64,000 nt of DNA from Eledone cirrhosa (Eukaryota): contig OZ024740.1 in the NCBI GenBank assembly GCA_964016885.1, positions 252,154,001-252,218,000 on the forward strand, in the 5' to 3' direction. Numbering within the stretch: the stretch's first letter is position 1; each line of letters starts with the position of its first letter. Of the stretch, positions 51,287-64,000 are shown piece by piece. The notes under the pieces are model-generated. The model had not been told where the DNA came from. It did not search any database and was given only the letters and a program-made list of their open reading frames with translations. The translations under genes and the position numbers were made by a program.

Positions 51287-53113
51287 TTAAAAAACGAAAC
51301 GAAACCGGTATACCTAAAAAAACAAACGAAAAGAAACCGGGGAACCTAAAAAATCGAACGAAACGAAATTATCTCCCCTTGGCCTGCTGGAAATTATCTC
51401 CCCTTGGCCGGCTGGAAATAATCTCCCCTTGGTCGGCTGGAAATTATTTCCCATTGGCCGACTGGATATTATCTCCCCTTGGCCGGCTGGAAATTATCTC
51501 CCTTTGGCCGGCTGGATATTATCTCCCCTTGGCCGGCTGGAAATTATCTCCCCTTGGCCGGCTGGATATTATCTCCCCTCGGCCGTCTGGAAATTATCTC
51601 CCATTTTACGACTGGAATTTATCTCCCCTTGGCCGGCTGGATATTATCTCCCCTTGGCCGACTGGAAATTATCTCCCCTTAGTCGGCTGGAAATTATCTC
51701 CCCTTGGCCGACCCGAAATTATCTCCCCTAAAGTAAATTAAATTAAATTAAATTAAATTAAATCAAGTTAATTAAATTAATTAATTAGTTATATTTTTTT
51801 ATTTTTATTTATTTTAATTTTTTTTATTAATTACGTTATTACTTAATTAATTAATTATGTAAATTGATTTTATTTCAATTTAATGTAATTTAATTTAATT
51901 TAATTTAATTTAATTTAATTTACTTTAATTCAATTTAATTTAATTTAATTTAATTTAATTTAATTTAATTTTATTTTATTTCATTTAAAAAACGAAACGA
52001 AACCGGTGTGCCTAAAAAAACAAAAGAAAAGAAACCGGGGAAACTAAAAAATCAAACGAAACGAAATTATCTCCCCTTGGCCTGCTGGAAATTATCTCCC
52101 CTTGGCCAGCTGGATATTATCTCCCCTTGGCCGGCTGGAAATTATCTCGCCTTGGCCGGCTGGAAATTATCTCCCCTTGGCCGGCTGGAAATTATCTCCC
52201 CTTGGCCGGTTGGAAATTATCTCGCCTTGGCCGGCTGGAAATTATCTCCCCTTGGCCGGCTGGAAATATACTCCCCTTGGCCGGCTGGAAATATACTCCC
52301 CTTGGCCGGCTGGAAATTATCTCCTCTTGGCCGGCTGGATATTATCTCCCCTTGGCCGGCTGGATATTATCTCCCCTTGGCCAGCTGGAAATTATCTCCA
52401 CTTGGCCGGCTGCAAATTATCTCCTCTTGGCCAGCTGGAAATTATCTCCCCTAAATTAAATTAAATTAAATTAAATTAAATCAAATTAATTAAATTAATT
52501 AATTAATTATATTTTTTTTAATTTATTTTATTTATTTATTTTTTTTAATTACGTTATTAATTAATTAATTAATTATGTAAATTGATTTTATTTCAATTTA
52601 ATGTAATTTAATTTAATTTAATTTACTTTAATTCAATTTAATTTAATTTAATTTAATTTTATTTTATTTAAAAAACGAAACGAAACCGGGGTACCTAAAA
52701 AAACAAACGAAAAGAAACCGGGGAACCTAAAAAATCGAACGAAGTGAAATTATCTCCCCTTGGCTTGCTGGAAATTATCTCAACTGGGCCGGCTGGATAC
52801 TATCTCCCCTTGGCCGGCTGGAAATTATCTACCCTTAGCCGGCTGGAAATTATACCCCCTTGGCCGGCTGGATAATATCTCCCCTTGGCCGGCTGGAAAT
52901 TATCTTCTCTTGGCCAGCTGGAAATTATCTCTCCTTGGCCGGCTGGATATTATCTCTCCTTGGCCGGCTACGTCTGTATACATGTATGTATGTACGTATA
53001 CATACATACTTACAATTAAGTAAGTGCCGTACTAAGAGTGAGAAATGAAATTTCGTTTCATTATATTACAACTTATCGTTTTCGGTACGCCTGGCCGACT
53101 GAACTCACTCGAT

Positions 53114-53161
53114 ATGCAAATTAGGCTGCTCAGCCGTTAATTTTCATAAGGAAAGTATATA
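53114..53161 (+). promoter_or_regulatory. Putative snRNA-type promoter cassette (octamer, PSE-like box, TATA-like box), copy A1
   Basis: ATGCAAAT 53114-53121, TAATTTTCATA 53138-53148, TATATA 53156-53161. Motifs and spacing are conserved in the diverged family B. Promoter function is inferred. Confidence 0.5.
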
Positions 53162-53170
53162 CTTTCGAAT

Positions 53171-53257
53171 GTTCAACTATCTGGCAGAAGGGTATACGGT
53201 GCTGATGATAGCTAACAAGCTTGAAACTAGTACATCGTTCCTGTGTCAGTGTTGAAC
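53171..53257 (+). ncRNA. Type I hammerhead ribozyme A1 (predicted cleavage after GUA, 53232)
   Basis: Stem I ACGGTG/CATCGT; core CTGATGA 53202-53208; stem II AGCT-AACA-AGCT with a U.U at its base; GAAA 53223-53226; palindromic ACTAGT stem III. Stem I extends through AGGG/TCCT, CTGGCA/TGTCAG and GTTCAAC/GTTGAAC. Confidence 0.88.
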
Positions 53258-53389
53258 AAAAAGGTGACGTGGTTGCCTTAACACCGTATGGCATAAATCA
53301 GGCTGTTCGCTTGTTTACAAACGAACAAAGCGGGCGTTATAATAAACGTTCGCTAAACTGATACGTACATATATATATGTGTACCTGTA

Positions 53390-53437
<48 letters not shown>

Positions 53438-53590
53438 TGCTACTGTACGTCTGTATACATGTATGTATGTACGTATACATACATACTTACATTTAAGTAA
53501 GTGCCGTACTAAGAGTGAGAAATGAAATTTTGTTTCATTATATTACAACTTATCGTTTTCGGTACGCCTGGCCGACTGAACTCACTCGAT

Positions 53591-53638
53591 ATGCAAATTA
53601 GGCTGCTCAGCCGTTAATTTTCATAAGGAAAGTATATA
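53591..53638 (+). promoter_or_regulatory. Putative snRNA-type promoter cassette, copy A2
   Basis: Identical to 53114-53161 at offset +477. Confidence 0.5.
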
Positions 53639-53647
53639 CTTTCGAAC

Positions 53648-53734
53648 GTTCAACTATCTGGCAGAAGGGTATACGGTGCTGATGATAGCTAACAAGCTTG
53701 AAACTAGTACATAGTTCCTGTGTCAGTGTTGAAC
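53648..53734 (+). ncRNA. Type I hammerhead ribozyme A2 (predicted cleavage after 53709)
   Basis: Same as A1: CTGATGA 53679-53685, GAAA 53700-53703; one stem I mismatch (CATAGT instead of CATCGT). Confidence 0.85.
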
Positions 53735-53866
53735 AAAAAGGTGACGTGGTTGCCTTAACACCGTATGGCATAAATCAGGCTGTTCGCTTGTTTACAAACG
53801 AACAAAGCGGGCGTTATAATAAACGTTCGCTAAACTGATACGTACATATAGATATGTGTACCTGTA

Positions 53867-53911
<45 letters not shown>

Positions 53912-54278
53912 TATTCTGTATGTAAACACACAGACAAACCGGTTTTTAGAGTCATCAACAACGAAACTAGTTCAATATTCCTTGTCTGGCTTTCTGGAGA
54001 ATAGAGGGAAGGTGTTCCCCCGAAAACCAGTATGACTCTAAAAACCGGTTTGTCTGTGTGTTTACACAGACAAACCGGTTTTTGTTACACCTACATATGT
54101 ATACGTGTGTGTATTCATATACACACTAGTATTTCAGTATGCATATGTAGATGTACATTTTTGACTTAATTGTTTAAGCGTCAGTCATACAAAAGTGAGT
54201 TACAAACGAAACGAAATTTAATTTCGTTTCGTTATTTGTTTTTATCGTCTCCGCTGAACCGGTGCGTACTCACACTCT

Positions 54279-54326
54279 ATGCAAATTAGTCTGCCCACTA
54301 ATAATTTTCATAGAAAAAGCATATAA
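54279..54326 (+). promoter_or_regulatory. Putative snRNA-type promoter cassette, family B
   Basis: ATGCAAAT 54279-54286, TAATTTTCATA 54302-54312, TATAA 54322-54326. Octamer-to-box start spacing is 23 bp versus 24 bp in family A. Confidence 0.5.
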
Positions 54327-54343
54327 CGATATGTGCTTTTACA

Positions 54344-54439
54344 ATTCTCCAGAAGGGCCGGTAGATAGGTAAATATTGCTGATGAGTTGTAACAACAGCG
54401 AAACTAGTTCAATATTCCTTGTCTGGCTTTCTGGAGAAT
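54344..54439 (+). ncRNA. Type I hammerhead ribozyme B (predicted cleavage after GUU, 54409)
   Basis: Stem I AATATTG/CAATATT; CTGATGA 54379-54385; stem II GTTGT-AACA-ACAGC; GAAA 54400-54403; ACTAGT stem III. Stem I extends through AGG/CCT and ATTCTCCAGAAGGGCCGG/CTGGCTTTCTGGAGAAT. Confidence 0.88.
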
Positions 54440-54660
54440 AGAGGGAAGGTGTTCCCCCGAAAACCAGTATGACTCTAAAAACCGGTTTGTCTGTGTGTTT
54501 ACATACAGAATAGCTGGGTTGCTCACAGTAAAGCAACCAGTGAAAGACTTGTTACACCTACATATGTATACGTGTGTGTATTCATATACACACTAGTATT
54601 TCAGTATGCATATGTAGATGTACATTTTTGACTTAATTGTTTATATATATATATATATGT

Positions 54661-54721
54661 GCATGCTACTGTACGTCTGTATACATGTATGTATGTACGT
54701 ATACATACATACTTACATTTA
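54661..54721 (+). repeat. Short fragment of the family A unit between (TA)n tracts
   Basis: GCATGCTACTGTACGTCTGTATACATG...CTTACATTTA matches 53435-53495. Confidence 0.9.
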
Positions 54722-54735
54722 TATATATATATATA

Positions 54736-55502
54736 TACGATATTAAACAAATGGAAACTATATTTATAAAACCATATTTATTTCATTATATATATTTCAG
54801 GGATATCATATTAAAAATATGGTATCATATTAAAAATATGGTATACCTTCCTCACAAAATACAATATATAAACCGTTTTATAAATAAATTTGACATACCT
54901 TAAACATTACAACTTCCATTTAAAAAGTTGATTTGGTAGTGAAAATGTTAAGGACAGTTAGAAAGAAAGACGAAGAGAAAAAAGAAGGAAAGTGTATAGT
55001 GTTAAGGACGAAGAGAAGAAGAAAGAAAGTGTATAGTGCTAAGGATAGTTAGAGAGGAAGACGAAGAAGATGAAGAGATGTATGTACAGAAAAAACAGAG
55101 CGAGATAGAGAGAGAAAGAGATATGGGAGAGAGAAATATATTGAGGAAGTGAAAAATGATAGGCAGCTTGGGCACAGATGATCAACGTACAAATGAGAGA
55201 TTAAGGAGGGAAGAGGGTACTGTAATTATTTATTTATTTATTTATTTAGTTATAGTGTTAAGGATACGGAGAGAAATAAAAATAAAAATAAAAATAAATA
55301 AAGAGAGGTAGAGAGAGATATAGGTGGCGGGAGAAAAGAGGTAGATCGAGTAATATCTATCATACGAGGTGGGAGAGATACAGTTAAATCAGCCGATACA
55401 TAAATCCCGTCAAGTGTAGAGGGAAGAGGAGAAGAAATAGATATATTCAGAAAGAAAGATGATAGATTTAAAATATTATGTTTCATCCATTTGAATTATC
55501 AA
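54736..55502 (-). repeat. Left arm of long inverted repeat (inverted copy of 57485-58234)
   Basis: Reverse complement of the right arm with few substitutions, an extra 19-bp duplication (TATCATATTAAAAATATGG) and a 2-bp deletion. Confidence 0.95.
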
Positions 55503-56615
55503 AATAATAACTCTGAACTAAATAGAAAAACAAAACAAATTATACAATTTTTTAATTACCTTAATCTAAAAATAGAAATTGAGAATAACCATAGAATAGT
55601 CAATTTCCTAGATATAACATTAAATCTCAACACATGTCTTCACTATCCATTTCACAAGTTAAATGAAAACTTGAATTATGTCAGTTTTAGCTCTAATCAC
55701 CCCAGATCTGTCAAAAATACTATAGTGAACTCTGTTCAAAAACGTATCTCTAGAATCTCATCTAATAAAAATATTTTCGACGAAAAAGCCCAGTATTACA
55801 ATGAAGCGTTAGCTAGAGCAGGATATAGTGATAAAATTATGTACATCGATAATAGACAAACTAACCAAAATAACAACAATTTTAATTACGGTAACAACTT
55901 TAACAACTATAATAGAAAGCATTACAATAATTCCCAAAACCAGAAAAGAAATAGAACTAGAAATATAATATGGTTTGCCCCCTCTTTCTCACTAAACATT
56001 AAAACCCACATCGCTAAACTATTTTTTAATGCTCTTGACAAATGCTTCCCTAGAACACATAAGTATCACTCAATTTTCAATAGACATACTATAAAATTAA
56101 CATACTCGTCCACCAAAAATTTAGCACAAAATATTAATAGAATAAATAATAGGAATCTAAAACCTAGCCAAAATACCGAAAATAGCCTAAACAATATTCA
56201 AGTAAACAACTGTAACTGTAGAGATAGATCTAAATGTCCGCTAAATAACAATTGCTTAGTTAAAAATATAATATACAACTGTAATGTTAAAACTGATTTA
56301 AATTCTTTTAATTATGTTGGTTCCACCTCGACAGAATTTAAACTTCGCTATAATAATCACAAGAATTCTTTTACGGATCCAAACAAAAAATCTTCAACAT
56401 CACTATCAGGCTTACTCTGGCAACTTAAACATGATAACGTTGGATATTCGATGGTTTGGAATATAGTCTCAAAAGGGATTCCTTTTAATTCCTCTTCTGA
56501 GACATTCTTTATACTAAAATATAAAAATGCCCTTAATTTACGGACCAATTTATTCAGCTGCTGTAGACATAGATTGAACTCAACTTTTAAATATAAATAT
56601 AAATTTAAAATGTAG
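55503..56615 (+). pseudogene. Penelope-like polyprotein remnant: RT C-terminal/thumb region, CxCx5Cx5C linker and GIY-YIG endonuclease (Naiad-like by inference)
   Basis: Motifs VNFLDITL, SNHP, ALARAGY, RNIIWF, IFNRHTIKLTYS, CNCRDRSKCPLNNNC, NIIY...YVGST..FKLRYNNHKNSF, CRHR. The catalytic YxDD region is absent; the called TTG start at 55491 lies inside the inverted arm. Confidence 0.9.
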
Positions 56616-57484
56616 TATATTTACTTAAGATATTTAACTATTTATGAAACTTGGCGATAAATCTTTCGATTCCTTCAATTTTTTAAAACCTTCTTCATGA
56701 GTATATAATTAATGAGATTAATTAAACTACCCTAAAATGGTGATGCTCCCAATCTATTGAATACATTTTTAAGCTAGATAAACTTCTATAATAAATATAA
56801 GAGCATTGTAGAACAACTGGGTATCCATAAATTTTTTTGAATGATTTCTGCTAAATAAGTTTTGTTGAATAATTTTGGTTTTGTTTGCTTTTGATTCTGA
56901 TTGCTTCTAATGAACTTGACAATATATTGTCAAATAAATTGGAAGGGTGGTTTTCTGTGGTTGATATGCGTGGCATACTATGCTTTCTTACGTCCCTAGA
57001 TACTCTGGGGAGTGATGAAAATATTCTTGGCGTTTTTAATATATTGATATCTGTTGTCTATTCTATGCTTGAACGATAATCATGTAAGTGAGGGCAAGAA
57101 TATTATTATTAATATTAATGTATATTTTATGTCTATATATATATGTATGTACATATATGTATGGTGGAATCTTTTGTAACGCAATGAAGATTTTCATGAA
57201 AAATAAGAATTTACAGAGCCGATCACGTAAATTCACATGTGTGTCTATAATTGTCAACTTGAATTTGAGATAACCTTCTCTTTTCTCTTTTTCTTTTTTC
57301 ATGAAAATACATATATACTTATGTATTTCAGTATTTTTGAAGTTTTATCTCAGATTTTGATTATAAACCTAAGAATTTTTAAACTAAACATAGGGTCATT
57401 ATTTTTTCATTTTTTCACACATTATTGATATGTGTCTCATTCATGAATATTGATATTTACATTATAATACCTAATTCATATGAA

Positions 57485-58234
57485 TTGATAATTCAAATGG
57501 ATGAAACATAATATTTTAAATCTATCATCTTTCTTTCTGAATATATCTATTTCTTCTCCTCTTCCCTCTACACTTGACGGGATTTATGTATCGGCTGATT
57601 TAACTGTATCTCTCCCACTTCGTATGATAGATATTACTCGATCTACCTCTTTTCTCCCACCACCTATATCTCTCTCTACCTCTCTTTATTTATTTTTATT
57701 TTTATTTTTATTTCTCTCCGTATCCTTAACACTATAACTAAATAAATAAATAAATAAATAATTACAGTACCCCCTTCCCTCCTTAATCTCTCATTTGTAC
57801 GTTGATCATCTGTGCCCAAGCTGCCTATCATTTTTCACTTCCTCAATATATTTCTCTCTCCCATTTCTCTTTCTCTCTCTATCTCGCTCTGTTTTTTCTT
57901 TACATACATCTCTTCATCTTCTTCGTCTTCCTCTCTAACTGTCCTTAGCACTATACACTTTCTTTCTTCTTCTCTTCGTCCTTAGCACTATACACTTTCC
58001 TTCTTTTTTCTCTTAGTCTTTCTTTCTAACTGTCCTTAACATTCTCACTACCAAATCAACTTTTTAAATGGAAGTTGTAATGTTTAAGGTATGTCAAATT
58101 TATTTATAAAACGGTTTATATATTGTATTTTGTCTGAGGAAGGCATACCATATTTTTAATATGATATCCCTGAAATATATATAATGAAATAAATATGGTT
58201 TTATAAATATAGTTTCCATTTGTTTAATATCGTA
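57485..58234 (+). repeat. Right arm of long inverted repeat (putative sense pseudo-LTR/3' region of the PLE)
   Basis: 750-bp reverse complement of 54736-55502; CT-rich with internal short direct repeats. Confidence 0.93.
58126..58190 (+). ncRNA. Possible degenerate PLE hammerhead motif
   Basis: CTGAGGA 58134-58140, stem II-like AGG..CATATT-TTT-AATATG..CCT, GAAA 58172-58175, palindromic ATATAT; stem I pairs poorly. Confidence 0.35.
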
Positions 58235-58325
58235 AATCTACTCCAAAACTTGTTGAGTGCTTTTATATCAGTTATAACATATTTACTCGTTGTAACCCAA
58301 CAATTTTAAATAAAACTTTTGCAGA

Positions 58326-59821: not shown

Positions 59822-59901
<80 letters not shown>
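59809..59901. repeat. (TA)n microsatellite
   Basis: Direct reading. Confidence 0.95.
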
Positions 59902-59902
<1 letters not shown>

Positions 59903-60168
59903 AGATCAAAAGATGGTTAAAGGAGTTCAATATATTTTATTATGCGCATTTCAAGAACAAACATCATCAAACAATAATATTTGTGTTTTCATCAGATAAA
60001 ACAGGAGAACATGATATGAAGGCTAAAAAAACACTTGTTGATAGTGCAGTTTTAAATCAACATATGTTTTAAATCAGTATATTATGCATACTCCAGTCCC
60101 ACAAACTGTAGAGTGCTTCTTATCCGATATCTGCATTGCTTTATTGTACTACAATAAAACTCACCTCC

Positions 60169-60618: not shown

Positions 60619-60889
60619 ACAAACCACAAATCAACACAGGCTGCAGTAATTCAAGAATGTCTAATCATCTGACTATATTAACCAAGTGTTTCAAATCTAG
60701 CTGTCGTCTGTTCTACAGTGTGGATGTAATTCACTTCGCGCAGAAGTTTTGTTCAAATTTATTGCGGAAATTTTGTGAGTTCAAATTTAATTTTGATACT
60801 ATTGTGTAGCTTGACCCCCCGTCTGAACTGTCAGGCGGAGGGTCAGCTCATCTTTACCCCTCCTAGAGGTGAAAAACCTGTTTTAAAAA

Positions 60890-62835
60890 ATGTTGTGGCA
60901 AAATAATTTCAATCGTCTGACAGAAATGTTAAACGAAGCGAACGAAAATAGTGGTGGGGGGACAGCGGTAAGAGTTGTAAGCTTGCACGCTTTAGTCCCC
61001 CCTTCCTTCCCAACTAACGTCATAGAGAAGGAAGGAAAAAATAAAATAAAAACAGACGAATCTGCGGAGAAAAATGACGAAAACACAAATCTGGACATGG
61101 ATTCCAACAACGAAAAAAAAAATTTTGAAAAATTGCATGACAATATTAATACCACAAACAAAGACACAACAAACACAAAAAAAACATTTGAAAACAACAT
61201 CATAACAGAAAGCAAAGCAGACGACATAGTCAACAAGATTTCATTTGCACAAACAACAAAGAAATCTTTGACATATATACCCGAAAATATTTCAGATGTG
61301 GCACGAAGAATCACAGACGCCAAACAATACATAAGTGAAGGAGAGAATGGTATTTTATCGGCAAAAATACCTCAAGAACTCACCAAAGACATTGAAAGTC
61401 GAACGGTCGAGTTCCGCACCATCAACAACACTTCAAAATACCTGAACAGCTTTCTCAAGCAAATATCAAAACAGTACTCACAGAAGTACTTAATGAAACC
61501 ACTTTCATAAGAAAAGACAGACTGTATGGAAGCCTAGCAATTATCATGAAGAACGAATCGGCGGCAAAAAAATGTGCTTTGTCACCGATTCGTTCGAAAA
61601 TTGTTTACCTTTTATCCATCTTATATGGGTAAAAGAACTCAACGCATATGGCTGGATGCAATGATGCCAGATGTGGACTACTGCTGGCTCATAGCTGGCT
61701 TCATCGATCCAGTGAATGACAACGTGATTTCCATTGGGAAAACCACAGGCAATGCGTTCAGTGGAACAGGTATAGAGCTGGTAGTGCAAATGAAGCCTGA
61801 ACGCATCGCCCAAATACCCGACAGAATCCTATTAGAGGGCCACGGGTATATAAACATTAGCGTGGAGGGGAGAAGGCCGTCCTGTCATATCTGTGCAGGC
61901 AGAGGGCACCTGAAGGCCGCTTGTCCCCAACTCAACAAAAAGAAAACCCTGCTACCAACACCAGCTCCACCACCACCACCACCACAACAGATAAACAAAC
62001 AACAAAACTCAGTCCCACCCAACCCGTCCCTCAGTAAAACTACACCACCACCACAACACAAACAGTCACAACACATTACCCCAAAACAAAATACAGGCCC
62101 ACCCAACCCCTCACTCAATAAAACAACACAACCACCGCAGACACAACACACAACACAGTCTAACATAGTGACATCCATCTCCCCCACAAAGAAAACCAAC
62201 ACGGAAACATAACCAGCAAACATACCTCTTCCCTCCAACACTGAAGATAACCCAACGAATTCGGAGGAAGAAACGGAGTCCTTCAGACAGATTAAAAGGA
62301 AAAAAAGAAAACATGTGCAAAACACACAAGGCCAAACAACCCCCACCCAAATCTCAACGCAATCCAACAAAACAGAAAACACCCCTCCAGCAACAAACAA
62401 AACCAAACCTGCCTCTCCCCTCTTCGAAACACTCACACCATCCGAAAAAAAAAAACATTACACTATACTTACATCAACAGAAACAATAATAAATTAAATG
62501 AACTCATAAACAATAATCCTTCGGTACAAACCGAAGGTGTAAACTTTGTTTCTTCAGAAAACTACCCACATTTAAAATTAATAAAGATCCCAATGAACCT
62601 CTACCAAAAACTAAAAAAGGATTTTAAGGAGGACGTAGGACCACCCTCTGTCAAACCCATAAACCGCGTCCTACTAAAAAGCTTTCCCCCTCCCCTTCCC
62701 CTCCCCAACACAACTCCAAACACCCCAACCCCACCACACACTGACGACCCCACACCACCACAAGACACCCCTTCACCCAACACCCCCGACCCCATGGAAG
62801 TCGTGCGACCCGAACCCCGGGAAGCGGAAAGGTAG
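60890..62835 (+). pseudogene. LINE ORF1 (gag-like, zinc knuckle), disrupted
   Basis: Fragments 60890-61510, 61574-62212, 62315-62497 and 62593-62835; CHICAGRGHLKAAC (CX2CX4HX4C) followed by a Pro/Thr/Gln-rich tail; stops and frameshifts between fragments. Confidence 0.78.
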
Positions 62836-62868
62836 GTCTCTACACTCTCCTTTGGCTCTGCCGCCCAC

Positions 62869-64000
62869 ATGGATGTGTTAAGAGTAGGATGTTTGAATGC
62901 ACGTGGCCTGGGCTCAACTTGGAAGCAAGCAAAGCTTCTAAATGACCTCAGGTCATGTGGCATAAATGTAATGGTTATCTGTGAGACTCGGATCAGCGTC
63001 GTGCGGCAGCTGGCCCCTACCTTCGATGACTTTGAGGTGCATGCATCTCTCTGTCAACCTGGAGGTGGGGGTGGGGTTGTCGTACTGCTGCAAAAACACC
63101 TGGGTCTTGCCGTACAGGTTGTGCACTCGGACCCGGAGGGTCGTTTGTTGGTGCTAGACGTTGGCAGTAGTGAAGGTGCGGCCTTAAGACTGGTCGCCGT
63201 CTACTCCCCTTTCGGAGCTGAACGGCCCGACTTCTTCCAGCGTTTAGAGACTTTTCTGGGAACGTTGCGTTCCCTGCTTCTAGCGGGGGATTGGAATGAC
63301 ATCCTAGATGCACGTTGGGACTATGCAGGAGCATGTCCTAATAGAGGGGGTGTAACAGCCTCAAGGGGTTACTCGACCGTTTTAACTTGGTCGATAGATA
63401 TCGTCTAGATTTTCCAACTGTGCCTACCTGGACTTGGAGAAACCACAGTGGTCAATCTAGATCGTACTTAGATAGATTCTTAGTTAGAAGTAAGGATAGG
63501 GACATATTAAGCTGTCCAGAAATGCGCACGGTTGGCTACACGGATAACAAATTAGTGACCTGCGTAGTCAATCTCGAGAAAACACATAAACAGGGTCCCG
63601 GTTACTGGAAACTTAATTTGTCTTTACCGGCAAAAGAGACTTACAGAAACCGGATTAGCAGATTAGTTAAGGAGAGGTTGACGGGTGCAATCGTCAACAA
63701 CCGATGGTGGGCATCTCTCAAAAGAGAGATTAGAACAGAATCAATAAGTTATAGCAAGATGTTATCTGCCGATAGGAATAGAAACGAGAAAGAATTAACA
63801 GGTAAATTAGAAGAGGCAATCAAGAGCGAAGATGTGGCCAGAGTGCTGGCATCGAGGACGGCCTTGAACCAGTTTTTCGATGCAAAGCACGAAGGCTGCG
63901 TCATTCGAAGTAAAATACGTGCTCTAGGTAATGAGGGGGCCAAAGCCGTTGGCTGGGCCCGCGTGACAGAAGCTAAGAGTGGAAATCGATCCACCATCCG
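62869..64000 (+). pseudogene. LINE ORF2 N-terminus: apurinic-like endonuclease plus linker, frameshifted near 63350
   Basis: VGCLNARGL, ICETR, VAVYSP, LLAGDWN; then in another frame TWTW..SRSYLDRFLV..GYTDNK..GPGYWKLNLSL, open to the window end. The usual SDH motif reads TDN (catalytic His lost). Confidence 0.88.

Follow-up and report, generated by a model that had tools for sequence, protein, structure and literature searches.

How might a short repeat that encodes no enzyme be transcribed, cut and copied many thousands of times into a genome? The question is raised by a 64,000-nucleotide stretch of Eledone cirrhosa DNA (contig OZ024740.1, positions 252,154,001 to 252,218,000; hereafter the window), where two related, dispersed, non-coding repeats, families A and B, each carry a type I hammerhead ribozyme. 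Repeats of this class, the retrozymes, are known; how they are transcribed and which enzyme mobilizes them was left open in 2020 (PMC7229834, PMC7761336). Sequence comparison indicates that A and B are a real retrozyme pair of the known kind, with an unusually clear insertion signature of Penelope-like elements (PLEs) and likely an internal promoter of the small nuclear RNA (snRNA) type. We consider it probable that A and B are transcribed from this promoter, are predicted to cleave themselves into probable circles, and are copied into (TA)n tracts by a PLE reverse transcriptase (RT) acting in trans. If this is true, both the transcription and the enzyme of retrozymes become testable.

Two nested hammerhead repeat families

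A and B share 218 of 314 aligned bases and are very abundant genome-wide. The core pattern CUGAUGA-N14-GAAACUAGUH has 23,681 exact genomic matches, compared with 0 for the reversed control. Family A gives 21,010 matches to a pattern taken from the strand 3' of the cut (control 20) and family B 9,411 core matches (control 0); many older A copies carry CUGACGA in place of CUGAUGA. Copies at 98–99% identity are spread over many contigs of the 3.0-Gb genome. With about 30,000 hammerhead copies, A and B together form a sizeable unannotated genome fraction that is missed by Rfam at threshold. The units have a GC content of 35–37% and contain only short, low-complexity open frames, with no RT or GIY-YIG frame and no long terminal repeat (LTR). 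Their arrangement in the window is as follows.

52969-53439, + strand: family A unit 1, beginning at the edge of a 25-bp satellite
53233-53709, + strand: predicted 477-nt monomer between the two A cut sites
53440-53909, + strand: family A unit 2, ending in its own (TA)n tract, the insertion target of B
53910-54081, no strand assigned: rearranged 5' end of the B insertion (inverted piece 53910-53955, truncated piece 53956-54066)
54082-54548, + strand: full 467-bp unit of family B
54549-54643, + strand: terminal partial unit of B, stopping at site 1 (see below), then (TA)n
54666-54721, + strand: terminal partial unit of A, stopping at site 1, then (TA)n

The initial annotation had described 477-bp and 467-bp tandem units of two paralogous families lying side by side. 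The paralogy and the 477-bp dimer of A hold. B, however, has a single complete ribozyme here, its 467-bp period being visible only in the 95-bp terminal repeat, and it sits within the (TA)n tract of A unit 2 rather than beside A, whose last 56 bases resume after it. The truncated B piece retains the 3' half of the hammerhead only, without CUGAUGA, so only A could release a monomer in cis at this locus. Arrays of 467-bp B units are present elsewhere in the genome, where tandem arrays reach about 31 units. The (TA)n tract beyond the resumed end of A is in turn occupied by a PLE. That the families are young, dispersed and retroposed, with PLE-type ends, B nested in A and a promoter-like block, had been missed.

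53171-53257, + strand: type I hammerhead A1; core 53202-53232, U.U at the base of stem II, 2-bp palindromic stem III (ACUAGU), GUA triplet, predicted cut after 53232
53648-53734, + strand: type I hammerhead A2; core 53679-53709, predicted cut after 53709, one stem I mismatch (C>A at 53713)
54344-54439, + strand: type I hammerhead B; core 54379-54409, GUU triplet, predicted cut after 54409

These three motifs stand as originally located, with their cores and cut sites. Each has the CUGANGA, GAAA and NUH core elements with stems I–III in type I order, and local folds recover an extended stem I and a stem II. Stem III of A and B has 2 bp closed by a 2-nt palindromic loop. The palindrome is kept despite sequence change, reading ACUAGU in A and B, ACGCGU in a related family C and AUGCAU in a family D. 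With good confidence, this 2-bp stem would act as part of a double hammerhead and free the monomer. In an alignment of 22 variants, hand-picked from the 86 found, 92.5% of the cells pair and 11 of 17 pairs have changed on both sides, a value not reached in any of 500 shuffles; the covariation of stems I and II first noted in the window is thereby borne out. Four of the 11 double changes depend on one family C row and seven remain without it, the independent events being few. The 477-nt monomer had been correctly derived from the two A cut sites and folds as a stable branched circle, with a minimum free energy z score of -10.0 for circular A, inflated by an AU tract, and of -8.7 for B (60 shuffles each).

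A scan of the window with Rfam gave no match at the gathering threshold, while Hammerhead_HH9 (RF02275; gathering score 52 bits) matches B with 37.3 bits (E 2e-8) and A with 17.6 bits (E 0.04). HH9 resembles A and B in its type I topology, bulged stem I and short loop 2, whereas stem III of A and B has merely 2 bp.

The retrozyme-like assignment fits the description of non-LTR retrozymes from coral, mussel and axolotl (PMC7229834), namely short non-coding tandem units with GC below 50% and one canonical type I hammerhead each, a weak palindromic stem III, a highly self-paired monomer and co-occurrence with PLEs. A also has the U.U stem II base in common with the axolotl ribozyme HHR_Amex2. The published units measure 150–450 bp, compared with 467–477 bp in A and B.

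Insertion ends and their template

A and B were mapped in 150 loci, giving 137 non-redundant complete segments; the loci are the top genome matches and the first positions on the contig of the window (C1), not a random sample. The dispersed copies have fixed 3' ends and variable 5' ends, in keeping with dispersal by retroposition. There are two homologous 3' end points, here called site 1 and site 2; the stretch between them, the "tail", measures 58 nt in A and 69 nt in B.

53496-53553, + strand: A tail, between site 1 (53495) and site 2 (53553), containing a hairpin
54177-54245, + strand: B tail, between site 1 (54176) and site 2 (54245)

In one contig set (X1, of unclear kind and possibly from the source organism) a loose (AT)n end at 54245 matches B site 2. 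A (TA)4+ tract adjoins 162 of 172 classified ends, compared with 9% of random positions. Seventy-one insertions are two-armed and inverted. Both ends can be classified in 53 of them, and all 53 (34 A, 19 B) have one end at each site; in the remaining 18, one end is unclassified. Single-armed copies (n = 52) end at site 1 in 19 cases and at site 2 in 27, with 6 unclassified. Since these copies use either site, about half of the pairs would be mixed if the two ends were chosen independently.

The adjacent PLE family follows this rule as well: 24 stretches, many of them selected for an inverted arm, contain 16 outward-facing end pairs, and all 16 are of the mixed kind, with one end ambiguous. A tail at one end only has been described for PLEs (PMC8557442), and in work with a purified PLE protein, synthesis began at two internal positions, which set the limits of the tail, and both strands were nicked and extended; this protein is predicted to dimerize (PMC11167929). 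The fixed dual 3' ends are the "tail" signature of PLEs and point to a PLE reverse transcriptase. From the shared end rule, the (TA)n targets and this biochemistry, we infer that a PLE protein moves A and B, with one start site per target strand. Very probably, the protein would nick both (TA)n strands and start one cDNA at site 1 on one strand and a second at site 2 on the opposite strand; both would stop at random points and be joined into an inverted two-armed copy, or a single arm would survive. The genome appears to record a strict rule, common to the PLE, of one end with a tail and one without, together with predicted RT starts and a predicted transcription start.

The GIY-YIG PLEs (Poseidon_Ac, PMC11167929; PMC8557442) share further features with A and B: two internal RT starts, an optional tail, often at one end only, an inverted 5'-truncated arm, AT-rich or (TA)n targets and a type I hammerhead. 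Their tails measure 30–40 nt, compared with 58–69 nt in A and B, which are also non-coding.

Fold-back copying of the first cDNA was considered and rejected, as either arm may be the longer one. A satellite spreading at the DNA level, or a short interspersed element moved by a long interspersed element (LINE) with ordinary twin priming, is very improbable. Long arrays do grow by block duplication, and LINE-like elements lie within the window. However, the arms start at fixed internal sites, overlap in the template and can each be the longer, poly(A) is absent and the targets are (TA)n; this end pattern matches PLE insertions and contradicts satellite spread. LINE twin priming is not known to give such a pattern.

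Which form of the RNA is copied can be approached from the 5' breakpoints. Of the 151 examined, only 4 fall 5 nt or less from the hammerhead cut, with about 4 expected if they were uniform, which rules out a cleaved linear monomer as the template. Evenly spread breakpoints indicate a template without an end at the cut, either circular or multimeric and uncleaved. Wherever the overlap sufficed (45 insertions), the two arms resemble each other more than they do the median other copy, and in 18 cases no other copy is closer. In young subfamilies, private variants common to both arms number 4 in 17 A insertions and 5 in 14 B insertions (two of them adjacent), compared with 0.043 per unrelated pair. 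Arm similarity and shared private variants lean towards a single template for both arms.

It is possible, although unlikely, that the PLE copies an uncleaved linear read-through multimer, with a slow or protein-gated hammerhead and circles as a side product or absent. The few breakpoints at the cut fit this equally well. A lizard PLE inserts without the need for hammerhead cleavage and uses uncleaved RNA as its main substrate (PMC11167929), which also speaks against circles as the template. Array periodicity, rejected here as proof of circles, gives them no support, since the alternating variants differ from block to block and one array has a period of four. On the other hand, the stems covary across subfamilies and families, which suggests selection for cleavage; arms often extend beyond a single unit, and the units of young arrays are identical (five in L230, three in L167); and circles are the main form of coral, mussel and axolotl retrozymes (PMC7229834). 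We favour the circle, which a host ligase would, on balance, close from the freed monomer and which would then serve as the template.

Long arrays (L158, L223-L226, L231) extend by blocks of two or four units rather than by single units. DNA-level duplication explains the alternating units in five arrays, and such arrays would have grown at the DNA level after insertion.

A promoter-like block upstream of the ribozyme

Each A and B unit contains the 12-mer TATGCAAATTAG and a TATA-like box just 5' of the ribozyme.

53113-53162, + strand: putative promoter block of A1; TATGCAAATTAG at 53113-53124, TCAGC at 53130-53134, TATA at 53156, predicted start near 53186
53590-53639, + strand: putative promoter block of A2; 12-mer at 53590-53601, TATA at 53633
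54278-54328, + strand: putative promoter block of B; 12-mer at 54278-54289, TATA-like box at 54322, predicted start near 54352

The same 12-mer is found at -77 to -79 in three distinct host U6 promoters and in the best of eight U6atac loci. Across the nine host U6 loci shown, it is in position in four, displaced by an insertion in three and missing there in two. By chance, 14 and 6 in 20,000 shuffled units match it. A second motif, YCAS, is present at -56 to -58 in 10 of 11 distinct host U1/U2/U4 promoters, a set that omits one U4 copy without YCAS and one duplicate. It lies 26–27 nt before TATA in 7 of 11 repeat promoters (26 in A, 27 in B), in 10 of 11 U1/U2/U4 promoters and in none of four U6-type promoters. 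In both A and B, the distance of about 26 nt from YCAS to TATA thus appears to be that of snRNA genes of RNA polymerase II (Pol II) such as host U1/U2/U4, the motif being short. The 12-mer is placed 43–44 nt before TATA in 8 of 11 repeat examples, compared with 47–49 nt in U6.

The host snRNA promoters (L091-L129, L215, L275-L288) are themselves unusual. Those of U1, U2 and U4 have YCAS at -57 and mostly a TATA-like box, and those of U6 and U6atac an octamer-like element at -78.

Runs of T inside the units reach T4–T5 in A and B, with T5 in B, and T6 in family D; the T5–T6 runs make Pol II more likely than Pol III. In insects, the 3' half of the snRNA promoter element sets the polymerase (PMC1761439). 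Together, the motifs suggest that A and B carry an internal snRNA-type promoter. The 12-mer, YCAS and TATA block would likely start transcription 15–30 nt before the catalytic core, Pol II being the likelier enzyme, and tandem read-through would include the promoter of the next unit, so that copies inherit it.

As a genome pattern, the 12-mer with TATA has 23,440 matches, compared with 669 for the control, and it exposed about five further hammerhead repeat families (L239-L258), the older ones with decayed cores. Twenty loci outside family A, chosen for the 12-mer with TATA, ten of them from one family and the families being related, have an intact hammerhead core about 90–106 nt downstream in 11 cases, a core judged decayed by eye in 8 and none in 1. 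In a metagenome scan, the 12-mer combined with the hammerhead core gave 29 matches, none with convincing hammerhead stems, which we read as chance. Family C (L231, 4400-6001) consists of 310-bp units in tandem and keeps the hammerhead geometry, with U.U as the stem II base and ACGCGU as stem III.

A wider reading, which we hold as tentative and somewhat doubtful, would unite at least seven retrozyme families in a superfamily. Its members would share a self-renewing hybrid snRNA promoter (U6-type 12-mer, U1/U2-type YCAS and TATA) that starts inside stem I of the hammerhead, and a dimeric PLE enzyme would copy one circle from two fixed starts, one per (TA)n strand. If true, it would name both the promoter and the mobilizing machinery of animal retrozymes and explain the PLE tail as the result of one start site per target strand.

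Alternatively, A and B could be detached pseudo-LTRs (pLTRs) of an unseen autonomous PLE, expressed by read-through only, with the 12-mer kept as RNA structure. In frogs, 24 of 57 retrozyme families match known elements, nearly all of them PLE termini (bioRxiv 10.64898/2026.07.22.740005), and a 2020 review saw no promoters in retrozymes, as far as its excerpt goes (PMC7761336). The 12-mer does lie within a hairpin, and our PLE survey is small. However, none of the A or B copies examined runs on into a PLE frame in the manner of a terminal repeat, and the host PLEs examined have their hammerhead no more than about 60 nt from the 3' end, compared with 234–263 nt in A and B. Moreover, the 12-mer arm of the hairpin is nearly invariant between the families while its partner arm drifts, and it matches the upstream elements of host U6 and U6atac. 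We consider this origin distinctly improbable.

Several observations weigh against self-transcribed, self-cleaving retrozymes moved by a PLE. The 12-mer doubles as one arm of a conserved RNA hairpin, and this structure could account for part of its conservation. It is absent from the U1/U2/U4 promoters, lies 4–5 nt nearer to TATA in the repeats than in U6, and is missing from family C, which nevertheless shares the ribozyme geometry. The U.U pair at the base of stem II in A has been linked to weak monomer cleavage in axolotl (PMC7229834), and eight of nine predicted frog retrozyme dimers stayed uncleaved in vitro (bioRxiv 10.64898/2026.07.22.740005). Most private variants are one-armed (37 in A and 47 in B, 84 in total). 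A small survey, which used a local profile and covered the adjacent family and about ten others, turned up no autonomous PLE with sequence in common with A or B. The non-random choice of loci belongs here as well.

With these points weighed, we retain an internal promoter and a PLE acting in trans as the probable account of A and B, and several published systems bear on it. Newt satellite 2 likewise combines a hammerhead with an internal promoter of the snRNA type, from which Pol II transcribes (cited in PMC2220036); it belongs to another lineage, and that citation does not mention PLE-type ends. Metazoan retrozymes differ in that the excerpt of PMC7761336 reports neither a promoter nor a motif indicating a partner, whereas A and B show dual 3' ends and a promoter-like block. 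For frogs, retrozymes were concluded to be non-autonomous dependants of PLEs, as proposed here; that conclusion came from co-occurrence and pLTR homology in vertebrates, while the present case is an insertion footprint in an invertebrate without pLTR homology (bioRxiv 10.64898/2026.07.22.740005). In the giant squid, 235 hammerhead loci were counted and not characterized there (PMC6962438). The literature searched, with most subscription papers, Dfam and Repbase outside its scope, yielded no cephalopod retrozymes, no PLE-tail ends in retrozymes and no conserved retrozyme promoter beyond the cited newt and schistosome cases. The element class is known, and the A and B families, their PLE-type ends and the promoter block were not found in that literature; the supplements of PMC7229834 and bioRxiv 10.64898/2026.07.22.740005, which lay outside the search, may list related families.

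Neighbouring Penelope-like elements and flanking sequence

The PLE that follows A belongs to a young family, many copies of which keep open frames of 700–785 codons.

54737-58325, + strand: 5'-truncated PLE; inverted arm 54737-55502 without tail, frame 55503-56501, tail 58235-58325, no homology to A or B

Its frame covers the RT thumb and a GIY-YIG-like region. Named homologues of the protein come only from Argonauta hians (36–42% identity). Pfam gave no RT or GIY-YIG domain match on the frame; the homologues carry PF26215 and one PF00078, and the local PLE profile weakly matches a retron RT (E 0.001). As a parent of A and B this PLE was rejected for lack of homology, which leaves it as no more than a candidate partner in trans. 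Together with the end rule and the predicted starts, the intact frames of PLE families in this genome give a ready assay for trans-mobilization and for the proposed PLE dimer.

The 3' end of the PLE has a type I hammerhead of its own with a long stem II (58134-58183, + strand), and a damaged inverted copy lies near 54790-54850. The initial annotation listed three hammerheads, all of which are present, and overlooked this one. A fifth (59941-59995, - strand) belongs to an element at about 59900-60150, a short 3' fragment from a different PLE family, inverted, flanked by (TA)n tracts and with the tail on one arm. About 0.6 Mb of loci contain at least a dozen further hammerhead sequence types, most of them located in (TA)n at the 3' ends of PLEs.

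Each PLE start site (58235-58325; positions 270-410 of locus L135) is followed by a short hairpin motif of similar sequence, CTCCA...GTTGAG, which may position the PLE enzyme; in a second PLE family (L265, L266), a related motif comes after site 1.

Positions 1-52968 form a compound satellite in which runs of a 25-bp GC-rich unit alternate with AT-rich spacers and a 32-bp motif. At 60887-64000 there is a broken LINE-like element with a zinc-knuckle frame and an apurinic/apyrimidinic (AP)-endonuclease-like frame.

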